DNA from: Eledone cirrhosa
Lineage: Eukaryota
Assembly (NCBI GenBank): GCA_964016885.1
Contig: OZ024741.1
Span: forward strand, 148,986,001 to 149,050,000
Direction: 5' to 3'
Length of the DNA: 64,000 nucleotides
Of the stretch, positions 705-62,413 are shown piece by piece (within the stretch, counting starts at the first letter, position 1; every line of letters begins with the position of its first letter). The notes under the pieces are model-generated. The model was not told the origin of the DNA. It saw only the letters and a program-made list of their open reading frames with translations, and did not search any database. Made by a program: the position numbers and the translations under genes.

Positions 705-960
705 CAATATATAAACAGTTTTATAAATAATTTTGACGTAACTTATTATAAGCGACCATTATATTTGGAAGCTGTCTGGATAGTGATTTGTTTATAATTA
801 TTTAGTTATAGTGTTAAGCACAGTTAGAAAAAAGACGGAGAGAAAGAAATATATATATAAATAGATAGGAGGAAGTGAAAAAGAAGTGAAAAAGAAGTGA
901 AAAATTTATATATATATATATATATTTATTCAGTCATAGGATTTTAAACCAATACCGAAT

Positions 961-5081: not shown

Positions 5082-7291
<2,210 letters not shown>

Positions 7292-7426
7292 TGTAGATAA
7301 ATCTACCAAGAGTTTACGGTAGTGTCCAATCCGTATGAAGAACTCAATGTATTCCGGATATCATGGAAAGAAGAGATGTAATGAAAAATCACTTTCGGTG
7401 AAAGATAAACGGTATACAGAGTCAAG

Positions 7427-8424: not shown

Positions 8425-8900
8425 GTAAAAAAGCATCTAGCCCACACTGCAAACAGGTTGTGTAGGTGTCATGACAAAACGCACCCAGCCCAAACCTTAA
8501 AGTGGTTGTGTAGGTTTCACAACAAAAAACAGCCAGCCCATACTGTAAAGTGGTTGTGTAGGTTTCACAAAAAAAACGCCAAGCCCATACTGTAAAGTGG
8601 TTGTGTAGATGGTCATGACAAAAAGCTCCCATCCCACACTGTAAAGTGATCATGTAGGTGTCATGACAAAACGCTCCCATCCCACACTGTAAAGTGGTCG
8701 TATAGGTGTCACGTCAAAAAGCACCCAGCACACATTCTAAATGCAGTTGACATTAGCAAGTCGTAGAAACCATGCCAGAAATACTGCTGCATGAGCAAGA
8801 CACGGTCAACTGACCCAACTTGCCTGAAACAGTACAACCCATCTAACCCATGCTAGCATGAAAAATAGACGTTAACCAGTGATGATTATGATGATGATGA
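8425..8900 (+). mobile_element. RTE LINE 3' UTR with ~6-7 tandem ~48-bp units and a (TGA)n tail
   Basis: The unit is approximately aaaagcacccagcccacactgtaaagtggttgtgtaggtgtcatgac. The same unit occurs 2-3 times in RTE 3' UTRs near 26800, 49010, 54400 and 58930. Confidence 0.8.
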
Positions 8901-11179: not shown

Positions 11180-13610
<2,431 letters not shown>

Positions 13611-26659: not shown

Positions 26660-26935
26660 AATTCCTTCCACGCTAACATGGGTTAGACTGGTTGTCCTGT
26701 TGTGGGCAGTGTCCAGTCAGCTGACCTTGTCTTGCTTATACGGGAACTGATTCTGGCTTGATTTCTACAGCTGGATGCCCTTCCTAACACCAACCTCATT
26801 TACAGTGAGTGCTGGGTGCTTTTTTCCCGTGGCGCCTACACGTCCACTTTACAGTGTGGGCTGGGTGCTTTTTTGCCGTGGCACCTCCATGACCACTTTG
26901 TAGTGTGAAGGGGTGGGGGCATATTGTCTATATGC

Positions 26936-26940
<5 letters not shown>
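26660..26940 (-). mobile_element. RTE 3' UTR fragment
   Basis: Nearly identical to 48880-49155. Confidence 0.85.
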
Positions 26941-27647: not shown

Positions 27648-27696
27648 GTAACTGGCACTGCTGCCTTTTGAAACCTTATCCCCACATACAGCAAAC

Positions 27697-28854
27697 ATGG
27701 ATTTAAACAACAACTTGACTGATAAGCAATTGCTGTTAGAAATCAGCAAAAAACAAATTTATATTTATCTACCTGCCATTATTTACCTGAGCATTGCCAT
27801 GATAATGGGTGTTATTGGGAATGTATTTGTCAGCTACATTTACTATTACAAACTCAGACCTACACCAGCTAATTTATTTGTAGTCATATTAAGTGTCTGT
27901 GACTTTCTTGCCAGTTTGGTATGTATACCTATGGATATTTCTATCCTTGCACATCCATATGTGTTTGAAAATGATATTGCATGTCGGATAATCCGATTCT
28001 TTGTCATGGATTTATCCGTCACTTCTGGAGTCATTGTCTTTGCCATTTCCATAGATCGTTTCAAGAAAGTGTGTTTGCCCTTGAAAAAACAATTTAATCG
28101 ACGTAATGTTGGTGTTATTTCAGCTATTGTTATCATCTTTGCAACTGTTCTATCATTGCCAGGCCTCTATGTCTATGGAACTACACATACAGCAATACCA
28201 AACACACATCTGAACGGCTCGATTTGCTCGATTTCAGAAAAAGCTGACGACTATGTAGCCAATGGTTTCATAGTCCTTCTCATGTCAGTATGTTTGCTTC
28301 TTTTACTATCATTCAGTACAATTTATTGCTTGATTGCATTGAAACTGTGTCGCTACAGAAAGCAAAGGACAACACTATGTGATTCCATGAAGGTGAAATC
28401 TGTCAGTCATGATGATAATTCAAAAGAGATGACTGACAGTAATGACTACATCAAAGAGAGTCGCCGTATTGACAGGATACAGAAGTCAAAAGCCAAAGGC
28501 CTCCAAAATGAAAAGGAAACATTTCGAGTTCGTGCAAACACACAGACCAAGAAAGAACCAACTTCTTTCATGAATATGACACGGACAACTTTAATTATGT
28601 TCTTTGTAACTCTTACTTGGGTGTTAAGTTACATCCCTCACCTAGCATCAATGTTTATTCTATCCAAAACAGCCGACTTGAAACACACACTCAGTCCAAC
28701 TGAAAGTGCTTTGTTTGAGATAGCATTGCGCTCTTTCTACTTGAACAATATGATAAATCCATTCATTTATGGTATATTTAATTTTCGCTTCCGTAATGAA
28801 GTTATAACATTATTGAACAAGACTATTTGTTGTCAAAGATGCAAATCATCTTGA
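27697..28854 (+). CDS. Class A (rhodopsin-like) G protein-coupled receptor, uninterrupted CDS, 385 aa
   Basis: Seven hydrophobic segments. TM1 GN, TM2 LSVCD, TM3 Cys and DRF, ECL2 Cys, long ICL3, TM6 SYIP, TM7 NPFIY, and C-terminal Cys. Confidence 0.95.
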   Translation: MDLNNNLTDKQLLLEISKKQIYIYLPAIIYLSIAMIMGVIGNVFVSYIYYYKLRPTPANLFVVILSVCDFLASLVCIPMDISILAHPYVFENDIACRIIRFFVMDLSVTSGVIVFAISIDRFKKVCLPLKKQFNRRNVGVISAIVIIFATVLSLPGLYVYGTTHTAIPNTHLNGSICSISEKADDYVANGFIVLLMSVCLLLLLSFSTIYCLIALKLCRYRKQRTTLCDSMKVKSVSHDDNSKEMTDSNDYIKESRRIDRIQKSKAKGLQNEKETFRVRANTQTKKEPTSFMNMTRTTLIMFFVTLTWVLSYIPHLASMFILSKTADLKHTLSPTESALFEIALRSFYLNNMINPFIYGIFNFRFRNEVITLLNKTICCQRCKSS

Positions 28855-32610: not shown

Positions 32611-32752
32611 AAAATTGGCTAGTGTTTACAAAGACACACATACACACACATATATATATATACAACACAACACCCTTCTCTAACCTGAATGCTGCACCTA
32701 ACCTTAACCCTAACAACTATATCTTTTAAAAATAGCTAATCTTTACACACAG

Positions 32753-32790
<38 letters not shown>

Positions 32791-32809
32791 GTGTGTGTGT
32801 GTGTGTGTC

Positions 32810-34300
32810 CATAAATACAGTAAAATTCTGAACTCTAAAACTATTAGGCTATCATACTCCACGGCACCAAACCTTGAAGCATACATAAAAAAACTTAACT
32901 TAAAGCAATTAAATAACACTACAAAAAAAAATATTTTGGTAACAGATGGGCAGAACGTAATATCTGCCTCCCAACCACTAAATGGGAGACGGGTATTACA
33001 CAACCCACCTGTACTGCTATCACAACCTATCCATGGTATACCCGCTACCCACAACAAAAACTGTAACTGCCATCTACCTGAAAGATGTCCATTGAAGAAT
33101 AAATGCCTAAAGTCCAACATTGTTTACCAATGCACGGTTGAATCGAACGACCAGAAATGGTATTACATCGGGTCTACCACCACCTCGTTTAAATCTCGCT
33201 GGTACCGTCATCGATTCTTAATTAAACATCCTGATCACCGTTTTGTGACCACGCTCGCCAACAAGACCTGGCAACTCCGTGAACGCAACCAACAGTTCAC
33301 CTTAAAATGGGATATACTTTCCAGCGCAAGTGCATATCAGAGTGGATTGAGGTACTGTAGGTTATGTAACCTTGAACTCTTTTACATCTTAAAGTCCAAA
33401 AATAAACTACTTAACGATAGAATCGAACGATCATTATACTGCAACCACAAACTAAAAGCTAAATTCTCTCACTATAAAATAACTTAACATTCGAACCCGT
33501 AACTATAACATCGCTTTCTAGCTAACCACCCTCTCTTCCCCCACACTACAAGACAATACCCTGCCTATCACTATAAATGGTAACTTAGTGCAATTCGCAG
33601 ATTACTACTACGAACCCAAAGTTCACCCACCCCATAGCTTTCGTCTGTCCCCTCTCTATCTCTCCCTCTATATCCATTCCACTCTCTCTCTCTCGCCTTT
33701 GGCCTACATCCTTCCCTCTCCACATCTATGAACCTGCCCTCTGGGGCAATAAATAATTCCAACCTTGACTATCAACGCATCGCTTAAGATGGTCGCTCTA
33801 AGAGTAACCAGTATAATAAAACCCCTACCATAACATTTTGATTAAGATATCTACAAACCACTCTCTCCTATTTCTCCAACCCCTGCACATCTTTCTCTCT
33901 CTCTTCCTCTCCCCTACTTTTCTCTCTTCCTTTTCTACTCTATCTTCTCCAATAACCTCACTTAAGGGTATTTACATTGTACATTTTAACCATTCTGCTC
34001 TGATGATACAGTGGTCACAGCATTTGATATTTGAGTTTTGCAAATAGTTGTAAATTTGCACATAGCATAACTAGGCTGTAGTACCACCGTGGAAACATTT
34101 GTAAGCACACGGAATAAATTACCTTTTTATGATGCCTACCTGTTATCATTCATTCTTTATCTACACTCCGGAATACAGAAGGATCAGGAACTAAGTTTCT
34201 TCAACAATTCTTCCATAACTCGTTGAGTAACCTCTCACCGTACGTCAACCATATCCAGTGTAGTAATTAACCATTACTGCATCTAGGATAATCCTATACC
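32810..34300 (+). mobile_element. 5'-truncated PLE: GIY-YIG ORF (to 33487) plus 3' UTR/pLTR, between (TG)n and (TA)n
   Basis: CNCHLPERCPLKNKC, IVYQCTV...YYIGSTTTSFKSRWYRH and CRLCNLE. Confidence 0.88.
33996..34107 (+). ncRNA. Type I hammerhead (GUA) with extended stem II in the PLE pLTR
   Basis: tgct CTGATGA tacagtggtcacagc...gctgtagtaccaccgtg GAAA ca-tt-tg TA agca. Confidence 0.78.
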
Positions 34301-39634: not shown

Positions 39635-40666
39635 ATATTGTTATACTTGGGGAGGGTCATATTTGCGTAATATTGCCAGAATTAATAACAGAACACACTC
39701 ACTGTTTGGTTGGTTTTCGCTTCTCGCTGTCTTTTATATCTGCGATCTAACTTACTCGGTCCTCAATGTTGCCATTGACTGACCGACGGTAAAAAATAAT
39801 ACAGATACAATATAGACACAAACACATATATATAGTTTACATAATTTACATAAATCTTTCGTTGCACATCTGCAACATCGTCAGTGGTGTTATATTCATT
39901 GTTCCTCCTGTTGTGTTGTATGTCTACGCCATTTTTTTTTTAATTCAGTCTGTCTATATATTTATTTATTTATTTGCTTGTTTGTTTATCTTATTTTATT
40001 TTGTCTTCTTTGCGCATGCGTTTGCGTGTGTGTATAGTGTTATGTGTGCTGTGTGACTAGTGTGTATAGTGTTGTGTCTGCTGGGTGACTAGTGTGTGTT
40101 TATGTGCTTGTTGTTATTGTGCTTGTGTATGTATTTATTTATCTTATTTTATTTTATTTTATTTACTTATTTATACTTCTCTTAGGTCAGTGTTGTTTGT
40201 TTGGGTGTTGTTGTTGTTCCACTCATTCTTTCTGTTTAGCTTTGGTCTTCTAATTTCTATTTCACTTTGGTCTTCTAATTTCTATTTCACTGGCCTCTCT
40301 GATTTGCCTATCTGCTGGGTCATTCCTATGTTTAGATATTATTCTAATTTCTATGAATAAAAAAAAAAATGGCGTAGACATACAACACAACAGGAAGAAC
40401 AATGAATATAACACCACTGACGATGTTGCAGATGTGCAACGAAAGATTTATGTAAATTATGTAAACTATATATATGTGTTTGTGTCTATATTGTATCTGT
40501 ATTATTTTTTACCGTCGGTCAGTCAATGGCAACATTGAGGACCGAGTAAGTTAGATCGCAGATATAAAAGACAGCGAGAAGCGAAAACCAACCAAACAGT
40601 GAGTGTGTTCTGTTATTAATTCTGGCAATATTACGCAAATATGACCCTCCCCAAGTATAACAATAT
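39635..40666. repeat. Inverted repeat, ~312-bp arms (39635-39946 / 40355-40666), ~410-bp spacer
   Basis: Near-perfect reverse complement. A third diverged copy lies at 62885-63425. Confidence 0.92.
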
Positions 40667-40679
40667 ATATATATATATA

Positions 40680-43600
40680 ATGGAAAAATTTGAACAGGGA
40701 CAAAACAGAGAGGCAGTACAACGAATGTTTATTAATTTCACGCTCTGGAGAGTGGGGTGTTGGTGGGGGACGACGTTTCGGGCATAAGCCCTTCCTCAGG
40801 TGAGAAGTGTGTGGGAACAGAGTTCAAAGGGTGTGTAGGGGAGTGGTGGAGAGACATATAGCGAAAGGAAACGGTGCGAATGAAAAAAATAAAAATAAAA
40901 ATAAAAATAAAGCATGATCAAAAAAAATACAAGGAATGAAATAAATTTAAATATAAAAGCATGATCAAAATAAACTGAAATTAAAAGGGGGGTAAAACAG
41001 GTGGTGGAAGGGTGTGGGGTGTGTAGGGGTGGTGGAGGGTGGAGTGGGGAGAGGGAGACGGGGTGTCCGAGCGGGGAGGGCTGAAGGTGGTGTGTGTGTG
41101 TAGGTGTACGTGTGTGTGTGTATGTATGTGAAAGTAAGGGTTGGGGGAAGAACGGGGTTGCATGTTCAGGAAGAGGTGTGTGGGGGGGTCGGAGTGTCTG
41201 TGCGTGTGTGGATAGAGGGATGGGGGGAGAGGAATCAGGAGGCTGAGGGTGTAAATATGTGGTGGAAAGCACGTGTGTGTGGGGGGTTTAAGCGTGTTGT
41301 GGGTGTAGGTGGCGTGTGGAGAAAAACATTTTTGGGGGTGTGTGTGTGGGTGAGTTATATAGGTGATTACGTAAGAGGATGGTTGAAAAGTTGGTAAAAT
41401 CCAAAGGTGTTTAGTGGATTCTGTGGTGGTCAATTTCTGCGTGCGAGTATTCCATGAAGCGATGGTCGGAAGAGGAGAGATGTGGGGTGCGCGCGCAACA
41501 GGAAGTGGTCAAGCAGTGGGAGTGCTGTGTGTCTGTTTGTGCTGGGAGGTGGTCAGAGGGCATAGCAGCAGTCGGTGGAATGGTAAAGGGGCGAGGATGG
41601 GTAGGTGTGAAAGTTGGAGTGAGGAGGGTGTGTGTGTGTATTAGTAGAGGTGTTAGTGGGATGAGTGAGTGTGGAGCGAGGGTGTGGGTGGAGCGAGGGT
41701 GTGGGTGGAGCGGGGAGAGAAGGGTGTGTGTGGTTCTATGGAGGGAGTGTGGTGTACTGGTGTGTGTGTAGTTTGATGAATGGGTGTTAGTGGGTGTTAG
41801 TATACGGGAGGTGGGGAGGGGTTGAATGCAGGTGTGAGTGGGGGTTAGTGGTGGTAGGGTGTGTAGAGTTGGTGGTGTACGAGGGTGTGTGGGTACGTGT
41901 GCGTGGGGTTGGGGGGTGTTAGTGATGTTAGTTGCGTGTGGGGTGGGTGGTGTAAGTGGGTGCGTGTGTTCGTGTGCTAGGGGTTAGGGGGTGTTAGTGA
42001 GGTTAGTTGCGGGGTGGTGGGATGGAGGTGTGGGGGTGAGAGGTGTGGGGTGAGGGTTAGTGGTGGTAGTAGGGTGTGTGTTTAGTGTGAGCGCGTGTAT
42101 ATATGTGCCGGTGGGTGTGTGCGTGTGATAAGGAGGGGGGAGGAGGAGAAGAAGGGAGGGATGTTAGTATGTTAGTTGGGGAAGGGTGGTCAGATGAGGG
42201 GTGGAGTGGAGGTGTTAGTATTGTTAGTTGTGGGGTGGGCGGTGAAAAGGAGGGGTGTGTTAGTGGTGTTAGTGGGAGATAAGTGTGGGGGGAGGGGGGC
42301 GGTCGAAGGCTAAATGAATAAGGGTGGGGAGTTCAGGCCGGGGGGAGTGTGGGTCTGTAAGATGAAGATAGTTCGTTGTTCGACCCTAAGACGATTGGCG
42401 GGTGTTCCGTGGCACTGGAGTAGGCCACATCCCACCACCCCACAGAGATGGCGTGCAGAATGTCCAGGGCCACCAAAGTGGCGGGCGATGGGGGAACTAC
42501 CCCCGAGACGAATATCCCGGAGGTGCTCAGTGAATCGGTCCGCCAGGCGACGTCCCGTCTGTCCGACATAGACTAGGTTGGAGGAAGTGCAGCGGAGGGC
42601 ATGCCGGACAGAGAGAGAGTGGTCGTTGGGACTCTGGAAGGTGGTGGTGTTGATGATGTGGGGACAGGTGTTGCAGCGGGGCCTAGAACAGGGAAAGGAA
42701 CCGGGGGGGGGGGGCAGAGCGTGGGTTGGGGGGTAGGGAGCTGTGGACGAGGAGGGTGCGGAGATTGCATGCGCGTTTGAAGGAGGGGAGTGGTAGGGTT
42801 GGGAAGATGTGGGAGGTGGAGGGGTCGGACTGGAGGCGTCGGAAGAGGCGGCGGATGGGGCGGTGGAGGGGTAGGGTGGAGGGGTGGTAGGTGATGGGGA
42901 AGGGGAAGGGGAGACGGTGGGTGGGTGTGCGGTGGCGTGGGGTGAGGGTGGTGGAGCGGTGGACAGCACGGGCGCGGGTGAGAGCGGTGTGGACGAGAGA
43001 GGGGGGGTAACCTCTGCGGATGAAATGGCTGACTAGGGAAAGGGCCTGGGACTCAAAGTCAGCATCTCGGCTACAGAGGCGGCGGATCCTGAGAAGTTGG
43101 GAGTAGGGAATGGAGTGTTTAGTGTGGGTGGGGTGGGAAGAGGTGAAGTCGAAGTAAGAGTGGGAGTCGGTGGGTTTGAAGAAGGCGGAGGTGACGAGGG
43201 AGTGGTGGGAGGGGTCGAAGGCGACGGAGATGTCTAAGAAGTGGACGTGGGTGGTGGAGATAGAGGTGGTGAAGTGGAGGGAGGGGTGCAAGGAGCAGAA
43301 GAAGGAGAGAAAGGAGTCGAGCTGTTCTCGGGTGAGGGTCGTGGCTCCGATACAGTCGTCAATGTAACGACCGTACAGTTCGGGCGTGGGGCCGGTGTAC
43401 TGGGCAAAGATTTGGGCCTCAACATGGCCAACAAAAAGGTTGGCATAGTTCGGGCCTATTCTTGTACCCATGGCTACCCCTGTGACCTGTTGGTAAAACT
43501 CACCCGAGAAGGAGAAACAATTCAGGGTGAGGACCAGCTCGGCGAGGCGAAGGAGGGTGTGGGTGGAGGGAATGGGGGAGGGGCGAAGGTCGAGGTAGTG

Positions 43601-45259: not shown

Positions 45260-48200
45260 TTTTTTAATGCTTGTACATATAATTGTCCTCCTATCCAACG
45301 CAAGAGACATACAGATACATATATATATATATTGATGTACAGTAGACATATAAAATCAAAATTAAAATACATGCGGCAGATAACACAGATAATGCAAGAG
45401 AATAGTCCAATAATTAGATCTAGTAGATAGTGTATGTGTTAGTCATATATAGAGCATGCAAGTGTGTCTCATTTATATAAGAGTATTGTGTGGCAAGGTA
45501 TTACATGTAATACAAGCACTTTTGAACATAGCTTTGATCCTTGTGAATTCTATATAACTGCTCTGTAGAACAACTGACGTTCTTACATTGAGCTATTTAT
45601 CTTACTGGTAATAAGGTAGTAATAAATTACTGACCTTCCCTGTTTATAGTTTAAAATATACATAACTACAAATAGTATCCTTAATATTATTAACTGCTCC
45701 ATACTGTTGAGCTAACATACATTAAATTACCAGTATGCTGATCAAAGACCAACTTCCTATGTCAACTAAGAACATACCAATACCATCCAAAGATACATAC
45801 GAAAAATTATTGATCAATAGTGTCAACTCCTTTATCAATAGAGTGAGATGGAGGACATTCCATTATGATAAAAACAGATCTAACAAAATTGATGACGCTA
45901 ACAAATTCGACTCCTTCGGCTTTAAAACTTTTAGAGGCCCCTTCACAACACACTATTAAACTCCTTTGAAAATGACCTAATAAAACTAGTTAAGAACATT
46001 AAATACAATAAGCATCGTAATAGAAACACCTTCTTAAACAAACTTAACTCCTCTATTAAGGGATTCAAAACAAGTAGTAAAATTATTGTGCATGCAGATA
46101 AACCTAATAATATATACAGCCTAGATTATGATACATTTAGAAAATTTATATATAAAGAACTACACAGGAGCTATAAGAAAACTACTATTAAAAACCTAGA
46201 AGATATTAATTTGGAAGGCCGTAATATAGTGTCCAAATTGGGACTTCAGAGACATACACAACCATACACCCCTAACCCCCTAGATTCTCTCTGAAGGACC
46301 ATAAGGAAGATTTCATTAGTAACCCTTCGATAAGACTAATCTGCCCTTCCAAGTCTGACATTGGCATTATCAGTAAGAACATTTTAGATAAAATCATCCC
46401 ACAGATTAAACACAAAATATACCTTAAACAGTGGGGAAATACGGGGGAAGTTATTGAATGGTTTAAGGATATTAAAGAGAACAAAAATAAAAAATGTATT
46501 CAGTTTGATATCAATTCATACTACACTTCTATTTCCCCTATCCTATTAAATAAGGCACTAATTATGGCCATGAACAATAGTGACCTGACTAAATCCCAGA
46601 TTGATGTCATACTTGCGGCTCGTAAAACCATAATCACATTTGAAGATCAGTTATGGACCCGCAAGGATACGCATAACAACTTTGACATAACTATGTGATC
46701 TAGTGACTCAGTGCAGGTCACTGATTTGGTGGGCCTATACCTACTAAATGAAATCCATAAGGACCTACCATACTTCAACGGTGGTTTGTACCACGATGAT
46801 GCACTACTCCTTATAGACTATAAAAAATTTAATATAGAAAGAACTAGGAAACACCATTAAAATCTCCTACTCTACCACGGCTAACATAGCATACCACATA
46901 CCTAGTAGCAATAAAAGAAAGATTAATACTTACTTTCAACAAACTAAAGCACAGCAGGGGGTAAACTTTCAAAACAACATAATAACTACAAACCCTGATA
47001 TCAATAGTAATAATAGTAGTAACACTAATGAAATCAATAGCATTAGGAGCGACAACCTTCATAGCCATAATGCAATACCTAGCAACCAGACTTCTACACA
47101 ACATAATAATCGACAGGTTAACATCCAAAATAAATGTAACTGTAGATCTAATAGAACCTGCCCTTTAGGTAAAAACTGCTTAATCAAGGACATCATTTAC
47201 TCATGCACGGTCAGAACTAGCAACTCTTCTGAAACCTATATAGGCTCTACTTCGAACTGCTTCAAAACGAGATACAACTCACATCTCCATTCTTTCAAAA
47301 AACAGTCTAGCCAACTCCACTTCACTATCTAGCTACATACACTATCTGAAAACTAGGAATAGATCATATACACTTCAATGGGAAGTGATAGGTAGGGCAG
47401 CATCGTACAAACCACCTAATACATTCTGTAACCTCTGTCTACTAGAGACCCATACTATAATCTTTTCGAACCTTAACCCCCTTAATAAAAATCGGAAGTG
47501 TTTGCATCATGCCAGCACCGCTTCCGACACTCCTTCCAAAGCTTTAAACCTAGTATATAACAATGTCAGATTTGAACTCATCACCACTTTTAACACTGCA
47601 CCTCAAGGGCTTGCCTACCACCACTACACCACACTCTCTGATCCACCCTTTCCTCGACACAAATCATTCTATCTATATATAACTTTATACCCTAGAAATA
47701 TCCCCATAAACACCAACTTTTAATATAATTACTTTTGATTACTTATAATTATATAGGGATTGAAATATAATACAGTTTATATAAACTTTAAATACTGGAT
47801 ACAACAATGAATTATATATGCATTTGTAATTGGATATATATAGGATTAATTTATTAACATAAGGGATTTGACTAACTTATATGTAGTGTGGTGCAATGAA
47901 TTATATATGAATTATATATGCATTTATAACTTAATGGATAGATTAATGACATTGTATTAGGGGGATGAATTTGTTTACCCAAGAGATGTACCTAATTCTA
48001 TCATGCAAGCAGCCGTACGCTGCTCCATAGCTTACCAAAGGTAATGTAGACAAAAATCTAATTGGACCTTTAATATGTTTTGAGAGTAGACTGTATTTAA
48101 AGTGAATTTGATATAAAGATATAGCACTTTGCGTGGGAAATTCAATTATAGCGCTATATAATAAGGAGTAATCAACTTCCTATAGATACCTTTAATACAT

Positions 48201-48847
48201 TATGATAGAGTAGACTGTATTTAAAATTAAATATAAATATATAACCTTTTATATAAGGGACTCAATTGAGGCACCATATAATGTATGTTAGAACAATGAA
48301 TTTAGTTATGAGAATTAGCTAGTTACCTCCCCTTACGCATTAACTCCCCTTAATTGCATACCTACTTCAGGATAATAAACCGCTGTAAATTCTCGCAGCA
48401 GAAAGAACCTATTCTATAAATATGGATTAAATAACACTGAGCCTCAATACATTACAATCCTTTACTACATCAAACATTCAATACGTATACATCGTAACAT
48501 ATGTGAAGGATGTGAAAACTATAACTTCCTTTTTCTGGATGTGAAAATGGTGGTGGATGTGAAAACTATAACTTTCTTTTTCTTTTTCTGCACACATACT
48601 AATTTGATCTATACAAAAAATACCCTCTCACTACAACCACCATAATACTCTTGCTTACCCGCTTAAAGTGCTTGTATTACATGTAATACCTTGCCACACA
48701 ATACTAGTATATAAATGAGACACACTTGCATGCTCTATATATGACTAACACATACACTATCTACTAGATCTGATTATTGCACCATTCTCTTGCATTATCT
48801 GTGTTATCTGCCGCATGTATTTTAAATTTGAATTACTATACAAATAT

Positions 48848-51800
48848 ATTATCATCATCATCATCACCGTTTTACGTTCGTTCTTCCATGCTAGCATGGG
48901 TTAGACGGGTTGTCCTGTTGTGGGCAGTGTCTGGTCGGCTAACCATGCCTTGCTCATACAGGAACTGATTTTGGCTTGATTTCTACAGCTGGATGCCCTT
49001 CCTAACACCAACCTCATTTACAGTGAGTGCTGGGTGCTTTTTTCCGTGGCGCCTACACGTCCACTTTACAGTGTGGGCTGGGTGCTTTTTTGCCGTGGCA
49101 CCTCCACGACCACCTTGCAGTGGGAGGGTGTAGGGGCATATTGTCTATATGCTTCAGCTTGTACCCATGGGAGGTCGAGTACTCTGTATTACTGCGTGAC
49201 GCCAGAGGTCACGGTCGTGTGTCATCGCCTTTGAGAGGTGTATAGCGAGGATACTGAGTTGTATGAATGTAACAAAACGAGACATGGTTTGTGTGTATAA
49301 TATTTAATTAACAATGGTAGATAGTATAGTTGACCTGTCAATAGGAATAGATGTTAGAATGAAACAAAGTTAGTAGTTACCGTTTTGATTGCCAGGCAAA
49401 CGCGGCTGGCAGAGGACGCCTGGCTAAGGCCAGGCGCCTGTTGGCCAAATTAATGGCAGAGCCAAATGTGAGGCTCTTGACCTGGTGCCGAAAAGGCAAA
49501 GAGAGAAAGGAAGCTTAAAGTTGTTAGTTTTATAGGGCTCTGACCGGAAGTTGCAGAAAGGGTTCTACTTCCCGTCTAGATCCCAATCAAAACAAGGGAG
49601 ACAACCGCTACATAACCTCCCGCCAGAATTTTAGTGTATAAAAATCGAAATGAAAATATGTAGCAAGTTGGCGAGAATGTTGTAACAGGCATGAAAATTA
49701 CGACAAAAGAATGTTTGGAAAAATCAATGATAGATATCAAGGTAGCCAACCGCTCTTGGCCAGAGAACGACTGGACATCCATCTATCCATCACCCAAAGA
49801 TACAATGTAATAAAGTAAAAGTAAGAGAAGAGCTCAAAGTTCAAATGTACAAAATATAGTTCACAGGTGTGCAATCACATGACAGCAGGAAAGAAAGTGT
49901 GTTCCAGAGAATGAATGCAGGTGGTCTCTGTTCTGTGGTATATCGTGAAATTTCCAACCTCCGAATGGATTTTCTCACAGGGAGAGTGCTGCAAAAATAA
50001 ATTCTCTGGCGTTCTGCTGGTTGTTGGTGAAGCTGTGTTGATGTATTGCTGCTGCTGCTGTTGTCTCGCTGAGTGAGCGTATTCGGTGTTTAAATTCACA
50101 GTAAAAAAAAAAAAATTTTTTTTTGTTTTTTGTTAGAAAAAATGAGTTGCGCAAAGTGCTAGAAATAGCAGCCGAAGTTGATGGTCGATGTTGAGAATGC
50201 GTTGACCTGGAAGGGTCAAGAGGCCAGCGACCAGAGAAATAAGCATTCTTAATAAATGCGCGGTTATCAACGGTAAATTTACATTGTAAATTTATAAACC
50301 GGCAAATAGAAGAATATAGCTTAAGGCTGAAGAACCCCTGGTGAGAAATGTTATCTCTGGCGTGCGGCTGTCTGTGAGTAGAGACATCTCTGTGAATCGA
50401 GAATTTGTGCTGCCTACACGTGCCAATACAAGGTTGAAAAAAATAATATTTCTAACGCGCGAGAAAATGATAGTGCAATTTTGAAAGTGACACTGGGTTG
50501 TATGAATGTAACAAGGAATACATGTTTTGGGTGTATAATATTTAATTAACAATGGTAGATAGTATAGTTGACCTGTCAATAGGAATAGATGTTAGAATGA
50601 AACAAAGTTAGTAGTTACCGTTTTGATTGCCAGGCAAACGCGGCTGGCAGAGGACGCCTGGCTAAGGCCTGGCGCCTGTTGGCCAAATTAATGGCAGAGC
50701 CAAATGTGAGGCTCTTGACCTGGTGCCGAAAAGGCAAAGAGAGAAAGGAAGCTTAAAGTTGTTAGTTTTATAGGGCTCTGACCGGAAGTTGCAGAAAGGG
50801 TTCTACTTCCCGTCTAGATCCCAATCAAAACAAGGGAGACAACCGCTACAGGTGTAATTGGGTAAGGTCGGCTTTTATCACCTCATCCCAGGTCTTCTTG
50901 GGTCTCCCCACTCCACGGTTTCCATTGACTTCTAGTGCTCTGCACATTTTTATGCAGCTGTCATCCTTCATACGCATCACATGTCCATACCAACGCAACC
51001 GCCTCTCCTGCACACAGCATTTGATTCCTCTTATGCTCAGTCTCTCTCTCAATTCATTTATGCTTTGTCGTTCGCGTATATTACTATTACACATCCATCG
51101 GAGCATGCAGGCTTCGTTTCTTTCTAATCTACGTAAGTCTTCCACCTTCAGCGCCCAGGTTTCACTACCATGTAACATCGCTGTTCGGATATACGCATCA
51201 TACAGTCTGCTTTTCATTTTGAGGGAGAAGCCTTTTGCAGCTAGCAGTGGCAGTAGTTCCCTAAACTTCTTCCATCCCGTTCTTACCCTAGTTATTGTAC
51301 TTTCTGAACACCCATCTCCGCTGCTAATTCGGTCACCTAAGTAGCAGAAGCTGTCTACTGTTTCTACAGAGCCCTCCCAGAGATTGGTGGTACTTGTTTC
51401 CTGTGGCTGTTTGCTACTTGCTGTCCCAGCAGAGCTGCTGCATGTGAAGCCTACATTCTTAATTAAGCTTCCTGAGATCCCGCTACATCTCTTGTGTACT
51501 CATTGTTTGCATTTGGGGCAGAGAATGGAGTTCCTACCTACACCTTTCCTACATACTGAGCAAGGCCATTTCCCTGAGGGGATCTGGGTTCTGTTTTCTC
51601 TTCTACTTACTAGGATCTTAGTCTTTGTCAGGTTGATTTTGAGACCCTTTCTTTCTAGTCCCTGCTTCCAAGTTTGGAATTTCTTCTCTAGTTCTACCAT
51701 AGATTGAGCTATAAGTGCTAAGTCATCTGCATACAGGAGTTCCCATGGGCATCCGGTCTTAAACTCCTCCGTTATTGCCTGCAGGACTGATGAACAGGAG

Positions 51801-53773
51801 AGGGCTAAGAACAGAGCCCTGGTGGACCCCAACCTGTGCGCTAAATTCCTCGCTATACTCATTGCTAATCCTAACTTTGCTGACTGCTCCCCTATACATG
51901 GCTTGTACAGCTTTCACAAGCCATTCATCTACTCCTAGTTTTCTAAGAACCCACCAGATTATAGCACGTGGAACTCTGTCAAAGGCTTTCTCGAGATCGA
52001 CGAATGCCAGGTAGAGTGGCTTACTTTTAGCTAGGTACTTTTCCTGTAACTGCCTCACAAGGAAGAGGGCATCAGTGGTGCCTTTTCCTGGCACAGACCC
52101 AAATTGCATCTCATCTAGTTTCACCCGGTCCCTAATCAACTGTGCTATAACTCTTTCTGTTACTTTCATGACCTGGTCCATCAGCTTTATACCTCTATAG
52201 TTTCCTCTATCTAGTGCATCACCTTTACCTTTGTAGCAGTTGACAATGATGCTACTGCACCAATCTTTTGGTATGACACCTTCTAGTATTACCTGGTTAA
52301 CAATACGTGTGGTTATAGTGTGACCTACAGACTCAGATGCCTTTAGCATCTCGGCAGCTATACCCGATGGACCGGTTGCCTTCCCCATCTTCATATCTTT
52401 GATTGCCTTACTTACTACGCTGCTGCTGACTTGTACTGCTGGCCCCTCTATAGGGTCTACTTGGGGTAGGGTCTCTTCTTCCCATGCATTCTCCTCATTT
52501 AGTAATCTATCATAATGGCTCTTCCATGCATCTTTCTTCTCAGCACTTGTGAGGGAAAGCTCACCTTTATCATTCCGGATACGCTTCTCTCCAATGACAT
52601 CACAATTCTCTCTGACACACTGCTTCGCAATCTTGAACACCTGTTTCTGGTCCTCACGTTGCAAAACATGCTTGAATTATCTATCCTCTGCTTCCCTCCT
52701 AGCTAAGTATACTTGTCGCCTAGCTTCCCTCTTGGTCTCTATGTAATGTACCCTGATCCCCCCGTTCTTCCATTCTTTCCATGCCTGTCTCTTGGCCTTA
52801 ACTGCCTCATCTACCTTATTGTTCCACCACCAAGTCACTCTCCTCCTGCTTGTGGTCTTACTCCAGCCACAGATCTCATCCGTCGCCTCTAGTAAGTTAT
52901 TTTTTAGGAACTCTCAGTGCTCTTCTACATTGAATGTCTCTATGTGTTGTTCTTTACTGTCGTAGGCGTTGAGTAAAAATTTTTAAATCTGTTATTGGCT
53001 GAGGGGTCTTTCAGCTTCCAGATCTTTCTTCTCCAGGTTGGCCTCTGTTTCCAGGTTCGTCTAGTTCTGACCGTGAGGTCGCTGACAACTAAGCTATGTT
53101 GGGAGGTACATTCCTCACTAGGGTAGGCTTTTGTGTTTACGACCGTCCATCTGTCACGTCCTCTGATGAGGATAAAAATCTATCTGACTAGAATGCTCCC
53201 CTGATCTATAGGTGATCAGGTGGTTGTCGGGTTTTTTGAAGTTTGTGTTACATATCGACATGTCATTGGCGTCGCAGAATTCTAGAAGTCTGAATCCTTC
53301 TTCATTTCTTGTGCCAACCCCATGGCCTCCATGGACTCTATTGAAGCCGTCACGGTGTTTACCTACGAGTCCATTAAAATCTCCTGCGATGATTAGGAAG
53401 TCATTGTCATTTGTTAGAGCAGTAGTGTGCATTAGGGACTCGTAAAACCTATCCTCAAGTTCGTCTGGCAACCCTGATTGAGGTGCGTAAGCTGATATTA
53501 TTGTGGTAATTGTTTTATTCAGGACTAGTCTGAGTTTAATGATTCTTGCATTTACCCTGTACACTGAGATTACTTTATCTACCCACTTGTCAGATAGTAG
53601 GATACCTACACCACCCATCCCATCGTCATTTCCCACCCAGAAAAATTTGTAGCACTGACTTTTTCCTACAAGGATTCTAGCAGACTCTCCTCTCCATCTA
53701 GTCTCTTGCACACAGCATACATCAATTTCCTTTCGCTCTAGCATTTCTACGATTTCTCCTGCTCTTCCTTAGT
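48848..53773 (-). mobile_element. Near full-length RTE LINE (APE + RT, few frameshifts), interrupted by an LTR element
   Basis: IDVCCVQETRW, IIAGDFNG, NYRGIKLM, LAFVDLEKAFDRVP, HQGSVLSPLLF, LLYADDL and RLRWYGHVMR. (TGA)n tail at 48850-48866. Confidence 0.95.
49241..50850 (-). mobile_element. Non-coding miniature LTR element (TRIM-like) with 4-bp TSD GGTG
   Basis: Direct repeats 49241-49612 and ~50479-50850. Termini TGTAGCG...CGCTA(T/C)A. PPT-like ggcgggaggtta abuts the 3' LTR. TATAAAA and ATTAAA on the - strand. TSD at 49237-49240 and 50851-50854. Confidence 0.88.
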
Positions 53774-54389: not shown

Positions 54390-57300
54390 CATTATTTGCC
54401 GTGATGCTGACACGACCACTTTACAGTGTGGGCTGGGCGCTTTTTGCCATGTCGCCATCATGACCATTTTACAGTGTGGGCTGGAGGCTTCCCTGGATTT
54501 ATATTTCAGCTTGTCCTCGTGGGAGTGAGTGGGGTGGTGTATATTATACATATGTTTCATCTTCGGCCTGTACCCATGGGAAGTCAGATCTTCTGTATTA
54601 CTGCGTAACACCAGAGATCTCGGTCCTGTGTCATCGCCTTTCAGAGGTGCAATTGGGCAAGGTCAGTTTTTATCACCTCATCCCAAGTCTTCCTGGGTTT
54701 CCCCACTCAATGGCATCCATCGACTTCGAGCGCTCTGCACCTTTTTATACAGCTGCTATCCTTCATACACATCACATGTCCATACTAATGCAATCTCCTC
54801 TCCTGCACACTGCATCTGATTCCTCTTATGCTTAGTTTTTCTCTCAGTGTGTTTATGTTTTGCCGTTCACGTATATTACTATTACACATCTATCAGAGCA
54901 TGCAAGCTTCATTTCTTTCCAATCTACGCAAGTCTTCTGCATAAGCGCCCAGGTCGCACTACTATACAACATTGCTGTTCATATGCAAGCATCATAAAGT
55001 CTGCCTTTCATTTTTTTGGAAAAGCCTTTTGTATCTAGCAGTGGTAGTAACTCCCTGAACTGCTTCCATCCCGTTCTTACTCAGGCTACTGTACTTTCAA
55101 AACACCCACCTCCGTTTCTAATTTTGCTACCCAGGTAGCAGAAGCTATCTACTGTTTCTACTGAGCCTTCCCAGAATTTGATAGTGCTTGCTTCCTGTAG
55201 TTGTTTGCTGCTTACAGTCACAGTGCAGCCAGTACATGTAAAGCCTACGTTTTTAACTAAACTTCCTGAGATTCCACTACATCTTTTGTATATCCATAGT
55301 TTGCATTTGGAGCAGAAGATGGTATTTCTACCTACACCTTTCCTACATACTGAGCAAGGCCATTTCCCTGAGGAGATCAGGGTTCTGTTTTATCTTCTAC
55401 TTACTAGGATCTTAGTCTTTGTCAGGTTGATTTTAAGACCTATTCTTTCTAGGCCTGCTTCCATGTTTGGAATTTCCTCTCTAGTTCCACCATAGATTTT
55501 GCTATGAGTGTGAGATTATTTGCGTATAGGAGTTCCCACGGGCAGCCGATCTTTAACTCCTCTGTTATAGCCTGTAGTACGATAATAAACAAGAGAAGGC
55601 TAAAAACAGACCACTGGTGGACGCCAATCTGCATGCTAAATTCCTCGCTTTAGTCATTGTTAATCCTAACTTTGCTGACTGCTCGCCTATATATGGCCTG
55701 TACGGCTTTCACAAGCTACTCATCTACTCCTAGTTTTCTGAGAGCCCCCCAGATTATGGCATGGGGTACTCCATCGAAAGCTTCTTCCAGATCAACAAAT
55801 GCCAGGTAGAGTGGCTTACTTTTAGCTAGGTACTTTTCCTGTAACTGCTTCACCAGGAAGAGAGCATCTGTGGTGCTTTTGCCTGGTATAAATCTGAACT
55901 GCATCTCATAGATTTACTTGGTCCCTAATCAGCTGTGCTATAACTCTTTCATGACCTAGTCTATCATCTTGATACCTCTATAGCTTCCTCTATCCAGTGC
56001 ATCTCCTTTACCCTTGTAGCAGTTGACAATGATGCTGCTGCGCCAATCATTCAGTATGACGCCATTTAGTATTACTTGGTTTATAATATGTGTGGTTATG
56101 GTGTGACCTACAGACCCAGATGCTTTCAGCATCTCAGCAACTATTCCTGATGGACTGGATACTTTCCCCGGTTTTCATATCCTTAATTGCCTTACTTACT
56201 ACACTGTTGCTGACTTGTTCGGCTGGGCTCTCAATAGGGTCCACTTGGGCTAGGATCTATTTCTCCCATGTATTCTCCTCATTCACTAATCTTTAATAAT
56301 TGTTTCTACTTTTGGCACAAGGCCAGCAATTACCCAGTACATTACTGGTACTAATCTTTAATAATGGCTCTTCCTCGCAACTTTCTACTTGGTGCCTGTA
56401 AGGGCAAGTGTTCCGTTATCCCAGACACTTCTCACTAATGACATCACAATTTTTTCTAATGCTCTAATCCTGAATACCTGTTTCTGGTCCTCACACTGCA
56501 AAACATGCTTGAATTTTTATCATCTGCTTCCCTCCTCGCTAAGTATATTTGTTGTCTAGCTTCCTTCTTGGCCGCTATGTAGTGTACCCTGCTTCCTGCA
56601 TTTTTCCATTGTTGCCATGCCTTAATTGTCTCATCTACTTTATTGTTCCACCACCAAGTCATTCTCCTTCTCCCCGTAGTCTTGCTCCATCCACAGATCT
56701 CGTCTGTCGCTTTCAGTAGGTTATCTTTTAGGAACTCCCAATGCTCTTTTATATTGAATATCTCTATCAGTTCTTCTTTACTGTCATATGCGTCAAGCAG
56801 AATCTCTCTAAATCTGTTACTGGCTGAGGGATTTTTCAGCTTCCATATCCTTTTCCTCCAGGTCGGCCTCTGTCTTTCTGTTGGCCTTGCTCTAACTGAA
56901 GTTGCTAACTACTAGGTTGTGTTGGGAGGTGCATTCCTCACCAGGGAAGGATTTTGTGTTTACTATCTCATTCTTTGGTAAGGATAAAATCTATTTGGCT
57001 AGCATGTTCACCAGATCTATAGGTGATCAGGTGGTGGTCGAGTTTTTTTAAGTTTGTGTTACATATTGATACGTTATTGATGTCACAGAATTCTAGGAGC
57101 CTGAAACCTTCTCCATTTCTATCACCAAACCCGTAGCCTCCATGGACTCTGTATAAGCCATCACAGTGTTTCCCATTAAAGTCCCCTGCGATGATTAGTA
57201 AGTGATTGTCATTCATTAGAGTAGTGTTAGGGACTTGTAAAACCTATCTGAGTTCGTCTGTTAACCCAGATTGGGGTGCGTATGCAGATATAATTGTGGT

Positions 57301-57700
57301 CATTGTTCTATTTAGGACTAGTCTAAGTTTAATGATTCTCGCGATCACTCTATTTATGGAGATTACCTTATCTACCCATTTATCAGTCCATTGTCATTTC
57401 CCACCCAGAAGAATTTGTAGCACTGTTTTTTGCCTACAAGGAGTCTAGCTGACTCTCTTCTCTATCTACTCCCTTGCACACAACATACATCAATTCTCTT
57501 CTATTCTAGCATCTCTGCAATCTCTCCTGTTCTTCCTTTCATTGTGCTCACGTTGATGGTACGGATTCGGAAATTTGAGTATTTGTCATCAGTGGTAGAT
57601 GTGTAGGATGGGGGTGGGTGTATGTTTTCTGTATCTGAAGAGAGGAAGGTTCGCATGGTTGTCTGGAAACGCTTTGATTCATATTTATATTCAAGGTTGC
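54390..57700 (-). mobile_element. Older RTE LINE copy, same family as 48848-53773
   Basis: Colinear APE and RT motifs with many stops. Confidence 0.92.
56301..56349 (-). mobile_element. 5'-truncated SINE with 16-bp TSD inside the RTE
   Basis: TSD actaatctttaataat at 56285-56300 and 56350-56365. Confidence 0.88.
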
Positions 57701-59189: not shown

Positions 59190-61597
59190 GTTGAGACAGT
59201 AAACAAAAAACAGAAAAACAACGTGGAAGCGAAGAGACAGTACAAATGTTAATATTAGATTCACGCTTGAGAGTGGGAGGTGGGGGGCCGACGTTTCGGG
59301 CATAAGTCCTTCATCAGGAGAAAAGTGGGCAGGAAAAGAGTTCCGAGAGTGTGAGGGGGAGTGGTGGAAAGACATTAAAAAGAGGGGGGAGAGAAAAGAG
59401 AGGAAAAAAATTTTAGTGGGTAAAAAAAATTAAAATGAAACAAGTGGTGAAAGGGTGTGAGGAGTGTAGGGTTGGTGGTGGGTTGAGGGGTGGAGATGGT
59501 AGAGGGAGAGGGAGACGGGGGGTTCTGAGTGGGGAAGGCTGAAGATGGTGTGTGTGTATGTGTGTAGGTGTACGTGTGTGTGTGTGTGGATGTGAATGTG
59601 AGAGTTGGGGGAAGAACGAGGTTCCATGTTCGGGTAATAGGGAAACCGGGGTGGGGGAGAGGGGGCGTGTGGAGTCCGGAGGCTGAGTGTGTGTGTGTTT
59701 TTGTGTGGTGTGGGTGTATGGTTGCATGGTGCGAAAATAGTGTAAGTGTTTGTGTGTGTGTGTTCCTGGGTGATATTCCACGGACTATAAGACCGGATGT
59801 TGTAGAATCCGAGTGTGGAAAGGTCAATTGCTGGAGCGGTGAACCGGTGATGTAAAATCCTGGTATGGTGGTGAGGAAGTGAAGAGTTGTGGGGTGCGCG
59901 CGCAACAGGAAGTGGTCAGAGAGTCAAGGCAGGGCGAAGGAGGTAAGAGGAAGGAGATAGCAGTAGGAAGGTGCCAGCAGGCAGAGTAGTAACAGGTATA
60001 GAGATGGTCTGTATGTGGTGTGGAATGTGTGTGTGTGTGGGGGCGGGGGTGCGGTGGACAGGGGAGGGGGTGCGTATTTGAGAAAGGTTGAGAGAGAGAG
60101 GGTCGTGGGGGGTATATTAGTGGCCGTGTTAGTGGGATATGTGTGTGTGGGGGTGTTGGTAGTGTGGGGAGCGAGAGAGTGAGAGAGAGGGTGCTGGGGA
60201 CAGTCGGAGTGAGTGTAATGTACTGGTGTGTGTGTGTGCGTGTTTGGATATGAGCGTGTGTGTGGTAGAGTGGGTGTTAGTATGGCTGATGGTGGGGGAG
60301 GGGTTGAATGCGGGTGTGTTAGTGGGGGTTTGTGGTAGTAGTGTGAGAGTGGAGTAGGTGGTGTATCGGAGTGTACGTGGGTGTAGGTGAGTGTATGTGT
60401 ATTCGTGTGTAGTGAGGGGGAAGGTGGGTTGGGGGATGTTTAGTATTATTAGTGGTGGGGTGGTCAGATGTAGATGTGTGGGTGGGGGTTAGTGATGGTA
60501 GTAGGGTGTGTGAATGGTGTGAGTGTATATATGTACTGGTGACTGTGTTGAGGGTGTGGGTGCGCGTGTGATAGGGGGAGGGGTGGGGTGTTAGTATTAT
60601 TAGTTGTGGGGTGGGTCAAGGGGTGGGAGGAGGGCTGGGAGTGGAGGGGATGGTGAAACTAGGGAGTGTGTTAGTGGTGTTAGTAGGGTGTGTGTGTGTG
60701 TGTGGGGGATGACGGTCGAAGGCTAAAAGAAGAGAGGTGGGGAATTCAGGCCGAGAGGTGTGTGGGTCTGTAGGGTGAAGATGGTGTGTTGCTCGACCGT
60801 GAGGTGGGTGGCGGGGTCCCATGGCATTGGATCAGGCCACAGACGGTGAGGTGGAGAGCGGGGTGTCCCGGGGAACCAAAGTGGAGGGCGATGAGGGAAC
60901 TCCTGCCGAGACGAATATCTCGGAGGTGCTCCGTGAATCGATCCGCCAGGCGACGTCCAGTCTGTCCGACATAACGTAGTCCATAGACGAGGTTGGAGGA
61001 GGTGCAGCGGAAGGCATGCCGTACAGAGAGAGAGAGTGGCTGTTGGAACCCTGGAAGGTGATGGTGTTGGTGATGTGGGAGAAGGTGTGGCAGCGAGGTC
61101 TGGAGCAGAGGAAGGAACCGGGGGGTGAGCTGCAGACGAGGAGGGATCGGAGATTGCGCGCGCGTTTGAAGGAGAAGAGGGGTGGTGATGGGAAGATGGG
61201 GGAGGTGGAGGGGTCGAACTGGAGGGGTGGTAGGTGAGGGGAAGGGGAGACGATAGGTCGGGGTGCGGGGGCATGTGGTAAAGGCGGTGGAGCGGTGGAC
61301 AGCCCGGGCGCGAGTGAAGGCGGCGTGGACGAGGAAGGGGTGTAAGCTCTCCGGATGGAATGGCTGACCAGAGACAGGGAAGTGGAAGGAGGAGTGGAAG
61401 GAGCAGAAGAAGGAGAGAAAGGAGTCGAGCTGTTCTCGGGTGAGGGTCGTGGCTCCGATGCAGTCGTCGATGTAACGACCGTACAGTTTGGGCGTGGGGC
61501 CGGTGTATTGGGCAAAGATTTGGGCCTCAACATGGCCAACGAAAAGGTTGGCATAGTTGGGGCCCATTCTTGTGCCCATGGTTACTCCAGGGACCTG
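59190..61597 (-). mobile_element. Second Neptune-type PLE copy, more deleted
   Basis: MGTRMGPNYANLFVGHVEAQIF...YIDDCIG and YVGQTGRRLADRFTEH. Its UTR is homologous to 40680-42310. Confidence 0.9.
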
Positions 61598-61599
61598 CT

Positions 61600-62413
61600 C
61601 GGACTCGTTTAGCATAGTGCTAACCTATGGCCTCCAAATACCTGATACTCAAAAACTCAGCGATGTCCAGTAGTGCTAAGTTTAATGATTGCAGACTTGG
61701 TACGAGTGATGAAGAACGTGTCCCGCATGTGCGATCCAACTGAAATGGAAAGACACATCCAACACTTCATCAACCGCATGCAGCTCTCTGGCTACAACCA
61801 AAGAGACAGAATCAGAGTATACAAAGGAGCCACGGAGAAGTATAAGACCCTCATAGAAATGGACATGAAAGGAATTTGGCCATTATACCGGAGCAAATCA
61901 TGGAATAGCTTAGATAGGACTAAACATAAGATAAGGAAAGCCACCTCGTGGCACGACAACCAGAGATACCACTGTACTAATAAGAAATGTGTTATACATA
62001 AAGTGAACCCCCAGATAAACTGTAAAACTAAAAATGTAGTCTATAGCATAAGATATACAGAGGGTACTTGCAAAAACATGACAACAACATACATAGGTGA
62101 GAGAGCTCGAAGCATAGGAGAAAGAATAGACCAACACTGGGGGGAATTAAAAGGACAAAAACATGGTTCAGTACTATACGAACATGCTAGACAAAGACAT
62201 GACGGTAATATAGACAACATGGAAATTAAAATAATATCTAAACATAGAAATGACCCAACAGGTAGGCAAATCAGAGAAGCGAGCGAAATAGAGCTTAGAA
62301 AACCAAAGTTAAACAGGAAAAAACGAATGTTTCGCAGTATTAGTTATAGATGTTATCGCCGGTTTAGCAGGGTGGTAGAATCAGTGGTCGTTAGTTGCCA
62401 GTGTGGTAAGTGA
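61600..62413 (+). mobile_element. Fragment of a third PLE type (RT thumb + GIY-YIG)
   Basis: FINRMQLSGY, NCKTKNVVYSIRY...TYIGERARSIGERIDQHW...SVLYEHA...RQIREASEI...LNRK. Confidence 0.82.

Follow-up and report, generated by a model that had tools for sequence, protein, structure and literature searches.

The 64-kb stretch of Eledone DNA analysed here, referred to below as the window, contains microsatellite arrays, several LINE fragments and a single-exon GPCR. At 49241-50850 the window sequence holds a non-coding mini LTR element of 1,610 bp, which is read on the minus strand (from 50850 to 49241) and is inserted near the ORF end of an RTE-type LINE, in the same orientation as its host. The features of this locus are collected in Table 1.

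Elsewhere in the window, the GPCR belongs to the rhodopsin family, occupies 27652-28854 (+) (also given as 27697-28851) and is 80% identical to the Octopus bimaculoides and O. sinensis "nematocin receptor 2" and 55% identical to an Argonauta protein. TA-rich microsatellite arrays of about 2 kb each were found at 5082-7292 and 11190-13046, and two related GC-rich, strongly G-skewed stretches, 69-93% identical, at 41587-43489 and 60060-61597. An inverted repeat pair (39635-39947 and 40354-40666; 313 bp, 99.4% identical, about 400 bp apart) is possibly a young foldback or MITE. The translations of four plus-strand ORFs (940-3100, 32714-33487, 46838-47723 and 61646-62413) resemble, by eye, remnants of a Penelope-type reverse transcriptase (RT) and GIY-YIG endonuclease; the three that were scanned had no Pfam match.

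A mini LTR element within an RTE-type LINE

Table 1. Features of the mini LTR element and of the LINE copies around it (window positions).
Feature	Position	Strand	Remarks
Host RTE-type LINE (endonuclease + RT)	48850-53770, ends approximate	minus	5 breaks
Second RTE LINE copy	54400-57600	minus	83% identical to host copy; older, about 9-10% decay
TSD, left copy, GGTG	49237-49240		4 bp; single copy at empty site of second RTE
TSD, right copy, GGTG	50851-50854		4 bp
5′ LTR	50479-50850	minus	about 369-372 bp; inner end between 50482 and 50479
U3-R of 5′ LTR	50531-50850	minus	319/320 identical to 3′ LTR
TATA box, 5′ LTR	50772-50766	minus	
ATTAAA hexamer, 5′ LTR	50546-50541	minus	
5′ U5, divergent	50479-50530	minus	14 events/52 nt; no PBS after
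Hairpin in leader	50449-50466	minus	5-bp stem, palindromic CGCGCG loop
PBS candidate of the earlier note, weak	50414-50425	minus	rejected
Interior	49613-50478	minus	866 bp, non-coding
Polypurine tract	49616-49624	minus	8/9 purines, 3 nt ahead of 3′ LTR
3′ LTR	49241-49612	minus	372 bp, TGT...ATA termini
TATA box (TATAAAA), U3 of 3′ LTR	49528-49534	minus	LTR position 79
ATTAAA poly(A) hexamer, 3′ LTR	49303-49308	minus	LTR positions 305-310; only one per LTR
3′ U5 (putative, assigned from the hexamer)	49241-49292	minus	carries integrated outer end and GU/U-rich stretch

Both flanks of the element align to a single GGTG at 54646-54649 in the second RTE copy, which sets the length of the duplication at 4 bp exactly and shows the locus to be continuous. 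The 4-bp target site duplication (TSD) described in an earlier note on this DNA is therefore confirmed, both by the two GGTG copies and by the empty site. In its 3′ UTR the RTE LINE carries a tandem unit of 48-49 bp that recurs in several short dispersed copies (8428-8741, 26665-26939 and 48883-49156), which suggests a SINE or truncated LINEs ending in such a tail.

The purine tract ahead of the 3′ LTR fixes the orientation of the element; the plus strand was rejected, as it offers neither a purine tract nor a primer binding site (PBS). From the positions of the motifs we estimate that U3 spans about LTR positions 1-107 and R about 108-325, U5 being the remainder. Among the 27 ORFs listed as overlapping the interior, 10 were scanned and none matched Pfam. 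Both the purine tract and the non-coding interior of about 870 bp are as the earlier note had them. A stretch of the interior at 50103-50124, an A run followed by a T run, is capable of folding back.

Altogether, the direct repeats, short inverted termini, TSD, purine tract and lack of coding capacity are those of non-autonomous LTR elements in general. A Ginger-like DNA transposon was rejected, since neither the long direct repeats nor the purine tract agree with what is generally understood of that group. With 1,610 bp and LTRs of 372 bp, the element exceeds the size given for TRIMs in PMC6934838 (less than 1,000 bp, repeats of 100-250 bp). It further departs from TRIMs and standard non-autonomous LTR elements in two respects: its LTRs are not identical from end to end, as they should be at insertion, and no tRNA PBS stands right after the 5′ LTR.

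The termini may point to the CsRn1 clade. We compared the LTR ends with the motif pairs published for five clades (PMC3601003 Table 3), and the CsRN1 pair, short and degenerate as it is, was the best of the five. Six of its seven positions agree at the LTR start, at the 3′ outer end and at the inner end of the 5′ LTR; the last match (50488-50482) is, given the degeneracy of the motif, weak evidence. CsRn1 elements are described as having TGT...ATA or TGT...AAA termini, a 4-bp TSD and a tRNA-Trp PBS (PMC2582038), and the clade is reported from nine of 12 cephalopods (PMC6238403). The first two features are shared by the Eledone element, whose LTR of 372 bp can be set beside the 146-381 bp of the CsRn1 rows listed in PMC3601003 Table 3. 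The ATA end is probably native, and non-canonical LTR termini are known from TARE1 (PMC3701649). However, CsRn1 elements encode Gag-Pol, use a tRNA-Trp PBS and have LTR pairs more than 97% identical, whereas the Eledone element is non-coding, has no Trp PBS and carries U5s that differ. We take it for a young non-autonomous Gypsy-type mini LTR element, probably of the CsRn1 clade, whose RNA would not be open to priming by tRNA; because the end motifs are degenerate, we do not formally place it in that clade.

Divergence of the LTR pair beyond the poly(A) signal

By alignment, 49293-49612 and 50531-50850 differ at a single position out of 320 (49432/50670), as the earlier note had judged by eye. 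With the U3/R border inferred above, this lone difference sits in R and none in U3. Beyond this stretch the two LTRs part: nine events (eight substitutions and one indel) were counted over the 43 nt of LTR positions 321-363, and 14 over the 52 nt of positions 321-372, a divergence of 21-27% between the 5′ and 3′ U5. The contrast between 1/320 and 9/43 gives a Fisher p of 1.9e-8, calculated for a boundary picked after seeing the data. The first mismatch lies 10 nt past the only ATTAAA hexamer, a distance that the usual range of poly(A) cleavage takes in. The longest T run is 2 in the 5′ U5 against 4 in the 3′ U5.

The U5 mismatch just past ATTAAA was thus rightly noticed, but the ends were not rightly described. 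The sequence CGCTACA, which had been named as the missing end, terminates neither LTR: the outer 3′ terminus is CGCTATA, an inverted repeat of the element start at six of seven positions. To say that the 5′ LTR lacks the end is also an overstatement, as the 5′ U5 can be aligned to the 3′ U5 nearly to its end and bears the weak CsRN1 match given above. Since both U5 ends agree with the clade motif at six of seven positions, the 5′ U5 may be a complete U5 of sister type and not a decayed stump.

Normal reverse transcription makes both LTRs identical, as the earlier note had assumed. Indeed, PBS-guided reverse transcription yields identical LTRs even after intermolecular first-strand transfer with heterozygous RNA pairs, because the PBS guides the second transfer (PMC6894440). 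The U5 mismatch therefore requires another route. It could in principle be an artefact of assembly or polishing that homogenised the LTRs or joined two elements, and the window is highly repeat-rich; yet the TSD and the host LINE run unbroken across the insertion. Moreover, polishing would spare the U3 ends anchored in the flanks, and it is U3 that is identical and U5 that differs. We regard this explanation as very improbable.

A chimera made at the DNA level after insertion deserves more weight. Either the 5′ U5 and leader would have been replaced by ectopic gene conversion from a sister copy, or an older copy would have had its U3-R homogenised and its PBS lost. Repeat-rich genomes see frequent gene conversion among their repeats, and here both U5s resemble complete CsRN1-type ends. 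Recombination between elements is also the explanation given for differing left and right repeats in a study of bivalve TRIMs (PMC6934838). The form of this explanation in which the U5s aged apart, masked by conversion within the element, can be confronted with the age of the host LINE: as the element sits inside it, the time since insertion is capped by the age of the LINE.

We estimated the decay of the host LINE against the 42 intact homologues (1,000-1,110 aa) among 120 listed. It has five breaks in about 960 codons and is changed at 8 of 131 invariant and 18 of 217 near-invariant columns, which corresponds to d = 0.028-0.039 (about 3-4%, with no baseline subtracted) and to 95% limits of up to 0.056-0.062, or 0.064 with a looser column set. 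At d = 0.04, the probability of at least 9 events in 43 nt is 0.006 and that of at least 14 in 52 nt is 4e-5; at d = 0.055 these become 0.04 and 0.001. At the upper limit of 0.056-0.064, the 43-nt stretch has a probability of 0.04-0.07, so that the age bound is soft, which counts for the chimera. An estimate from stop codons (d of 0.07-0.085) was set aside as inflated, 8 of the 10 stops falling inside an out-of-frame stretch.

A LINE decayed by only 3-4% leaves too little time for a neutral U5 gap of 21-27% to arise by ageing masked by conversion, and this form is disfavoured. The test bears only on conversion within the element, not on conversion from an outside donor. A DNA-level chimera would need two independent accidents, namely the end of the conversion tract together with either loss of the PBS or a PBS-less donor, and the tract would have to end no more than about 20 nt from the poly(A) site, by our own estimate about 6% of LTR positions. 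On balance we consider such a chimera unlikely, though still worth keeping in mind.

Priming of reverse transcription

PBS candidates can be judged by a rule of three tRNA T-arm positions, which we applied together with the TGG. None of the 11 interior TGGs satisfies all three positions, and the first TGG on the element strand is 53 nt beyond the aligned LTR end. The claim that no TGG-type PBS follows the 5′ LTR thus stands. In the whole window, 79 of 1,832 TGGs satisfy the rule, and one of these, lying shortly upstream of the RT remnant of an unrelated Gypsy element, can be taken as a rough positive control. This PBS-like site (19590-19573, minus strand) lies about 340 nt upstream of the degenerate Gypsy-like RT (Pfam RVT_1; 18508-19248, minus strand), which has no similarity to the element LTR; a 150-bp tandem duplication at 19270-19571 adjoins the site.

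The weak candidate that the earlier note had placed near 50413-50425 found no support. It lies 53 nt from the LTR end and agrees at one of the three T-arm positions. Compared by eye with the 189 rows of a table of tRNA 3′ ends, which are not octopus tRNAs (PMC13524379, supplement file 1, sheet 2), it shows 3 or more mismatches in 12 (3/12 with an unassigned row, 4/12 with Leu); the PBS criterion stated in the same study is at most two mismatches, at no more than 50 nt from the LTR end. We also rejected a 5′ LTR extended up to the TGG at 50425, there being no att-like end at that place and no counterpart in the 3′ LTR. The tRNA-Trp PBS motif reached at best 7/12 within 110 nt of the LTR-interior junction, and its matches across the window are at chance level (134 against 128.7 expected).

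A primer of another kind might be hidden in the element, such as Tf1/sushi self-priming, a GalEa-type hairpin or a tRNA fragment, the U5 mismatch being then a separate event. PBS-less LTR elements are already known: biv-TRIM of bivalves, fungal GalEa and the Tf1 group are all described without a tRNA PBS (PMC6934838; bioRxiv 10.1101/2022.12.06.519325). Tf1/sushi elements need a duplex between the 5′ end of the RNA and the sequence that follows the 5′ LTR (bioRxiv 10.1101/2022.12.06.519325), and this is absent here. Indeed, the longest self-priming helix has 5 bp against a mean of 7 in shuffled sequences, and the duplex energy was reached in 24% of 200 shuffles. The LTRs of Tf1/sushi elements are, besides, identical. 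Near the junction there is no 9-bp inverted repeat of the GalEa type (longest arm 5-6 bp). An Rfam search of 48000-52000 gave one chance match, outside the element, and none within it, and ARAGORN found no tRNA in the whole window. Furthermore, an own primer of any kind would still make the LTRs identical (PMC6894440). Hidden priming is on these grounds quite improbable.

In a normally primed element, a single step might also have removed both the true U5 and the PBS and left a dead copy, through an early plus-strand jump, or a DNA recombination, onto a direct repeat in the leader that resembles U5. In HIV-1 proviruses, 5′ LTR/PBS sequence is lost through premature second-strand transfers, and 20 of 23 large-deletion sequences began upstream of the PBS (PMC12657518). 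In our case, however, such a step would call for an ad hoc U5-like leader repeat of about 80% identity, and the interior contains no further U5-like repeat (best local score 18). We consider this event improbable.

Proposed completion through borrowed strong-stop DNA

We take the structure to be real and unusual. It is best read, with a probability of roughly 0.55, as a Gypsy-type non-autonomous element completed without a primer of its own, by means of the minus-strand strong-stop DNA of a co-packaged helper and of R homology. This figure is drawn from one copy and spans both a lineage and a one-off rescue.

The element RNA would have the structure R-U5own-interior-PPT-U3-R and be co-packaged with a PBS-bearing helper RNA. 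The tRNA would prime on the helper, and the minus-strand strong-stop DNA would jump to the 3′ R of the element, bringing the helper U5 and integrase end to its 3′ side; intermolecular first-strand transfer as such is established (PMC6894440). The 5′ end of the element would never be primed or degraded, so that the minus strand would read through the element's own U5. The 5′ LTR would then be completed through R homology in one of two ways. In the first, the minus strand would switch onto plus-strand strong-stop DNA in R; the two U3s of a copy would always be identical, and a mismatched flap would be left for host repair to remove. In the second, the minus strand would jump once more, to the 3′ R of an RNA. 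Since such a 3′ R ends at the poly(A) site, this variant would explain where the boundary lies; the two U3s of a copy would be free to differ, and an overhang would be left for integrase to trim. In both, the helper integrase would insert the product with a 4-bp TSD.

Such a model predicts a helper U5 on the 3′ side, the element's own U5 on the 5′ side, a shared U3-R and a dispensable PBS, which matches the observed structure, the mismatch being confined downstream of the poly(A) signal (1/320 against 14/52). On this model the 3′ U5 would derive from the helper. The earlier note had proposed such a donation, and part of its case stands: a non-standard route is needed, there is no PBS and no self-priming helix, and the host LINE is young. 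The 64-kb window yielded neither a helper nor a second copy of the element. Comparison of the LTR, the interior and both U5s with the rest of the window (self-BLAST, nhmmer) gave only five short matches (E 0.5-0.66). Of the two longest interior ORFs, the junction ORF had, as a translation, no match among 1.84 billion representatives and the 158-aa ORF none among 26 candidates, both weak negatives for other copies; an exact 25-nt LTR pattern was absent from 185,579 prokaryotic genomes, which has no bearing on an octopus repeat.

The first variant reportedly has a laboratory precedent in the R-U5-mediated rescue of PBS-modified MLV vectors by Mikkelsen et al. 1998 (J Virol 72:2519). In that system a PBS-defective RNA is said to have been completed with the help of a co-packaged RNA, through an extended minus strand and a second-strand transfer that was not PBS-guided. 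This was a forced laboratory recombination in a retrovirus, whereas the Eledone element is a natural germline insertion, non-coding and with U5s 21-27% apart. Borrowing of strong-stop DNA is not in itself a new mechanism; what would be new is a natural lineage that lives by it. As to efficiency, non-autonomous ETn elements with a disrupted PBS are dead in assays according to a review (PMC7472051), which counts against the model.

That a whole lineage replicates via borrowed strong-stop DNA is a tentative proposal, which we hold at clearly less than even odds. It would agree with a non-coding interior without any coding remnant, with an intact purine tract and promoter motifs, and with a U5 divergence that calls either for a long time of separate inheritance or for a switch to another helper. 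A single rescue event by this mechanism is in our view unlikely. It would fit a PBS that is wholly gone, as a deletion would leave it, rather than partly decayed, and also the att-like end that the 5′ U5 retains. The persistence of this end speaks against the model, as long relaxed selection should erode it.

Among known elements, biv-TRIM comes from another mollusc group. This non-autonomous LTR element likewise lacks a recognisable PBS, and no partner is known for it; among five copies from Cerastoderma edule, left repeats consistently clustered apart from right ones (PMC6934838). It differs in belonging to the TRIM class (<1 kb), and its authors invoke recombination between elements and propose no priming mechanism in the account given there. 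With its unlike repeats, biv-TRIM may be a second mollusc case of PBS-less strong-stop borrowing. Exchange of LTRs is otherwise on record: Du et al. 2010 reportedly described LTR swapping in soybean SNARE. TRIMs and other non-autonomous LTR elements share with our element a non-coding interior, dependence on a helper and exchange of LTR parts with partners, but they are defined by identical LTRs and a PBS, and swapped parts reach both LTRs (PMC13570524). In the literature covered, whose full texts fall short of most subscription journals and Repbase reports, we found no natural family with a fixed U5 asymmetry.

A PBS and an identical LTR pair are treated as universal for LTR elements, and LTR divergence serves as their clock; a 2026 survey of non-autonomous elements demanded an intact PBS for full-length calls (PMC13570524). 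If the family is real, it would parasitise a replication intermediate and not proteins alone, and nothing but its own 5′ U5 and interior would be inherited. The family would escape tRNA fragments, whose silencing works at the PBS (PMC7472051), and be free to weaken the poly(A) signals of its 5′ U5. Pipelines built to require a PBS and matching LTR ends would overlook it; such elements would also be under-counted and mis-dated. A rare laboratory rescue route could then sustain a lineage, and PBS-less TRIMs that are now without a mechanism would be supplied with one (PMC6934838). If, instead, the element goes back to one rescue event, it nevertheless documents, in a natural setting, reverse transcription completed independently of a PBS, though this would be of modest interest.

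Finally, the R-U5-leader RNA is predicted to fold better than 99 of 100 shuffled sequences (z = -2.88), with GC-rich hairpins in the R of the 5′ LTR. Speculatively, the leader hairpin with its CGCGCG loop could be a dimerisation site.
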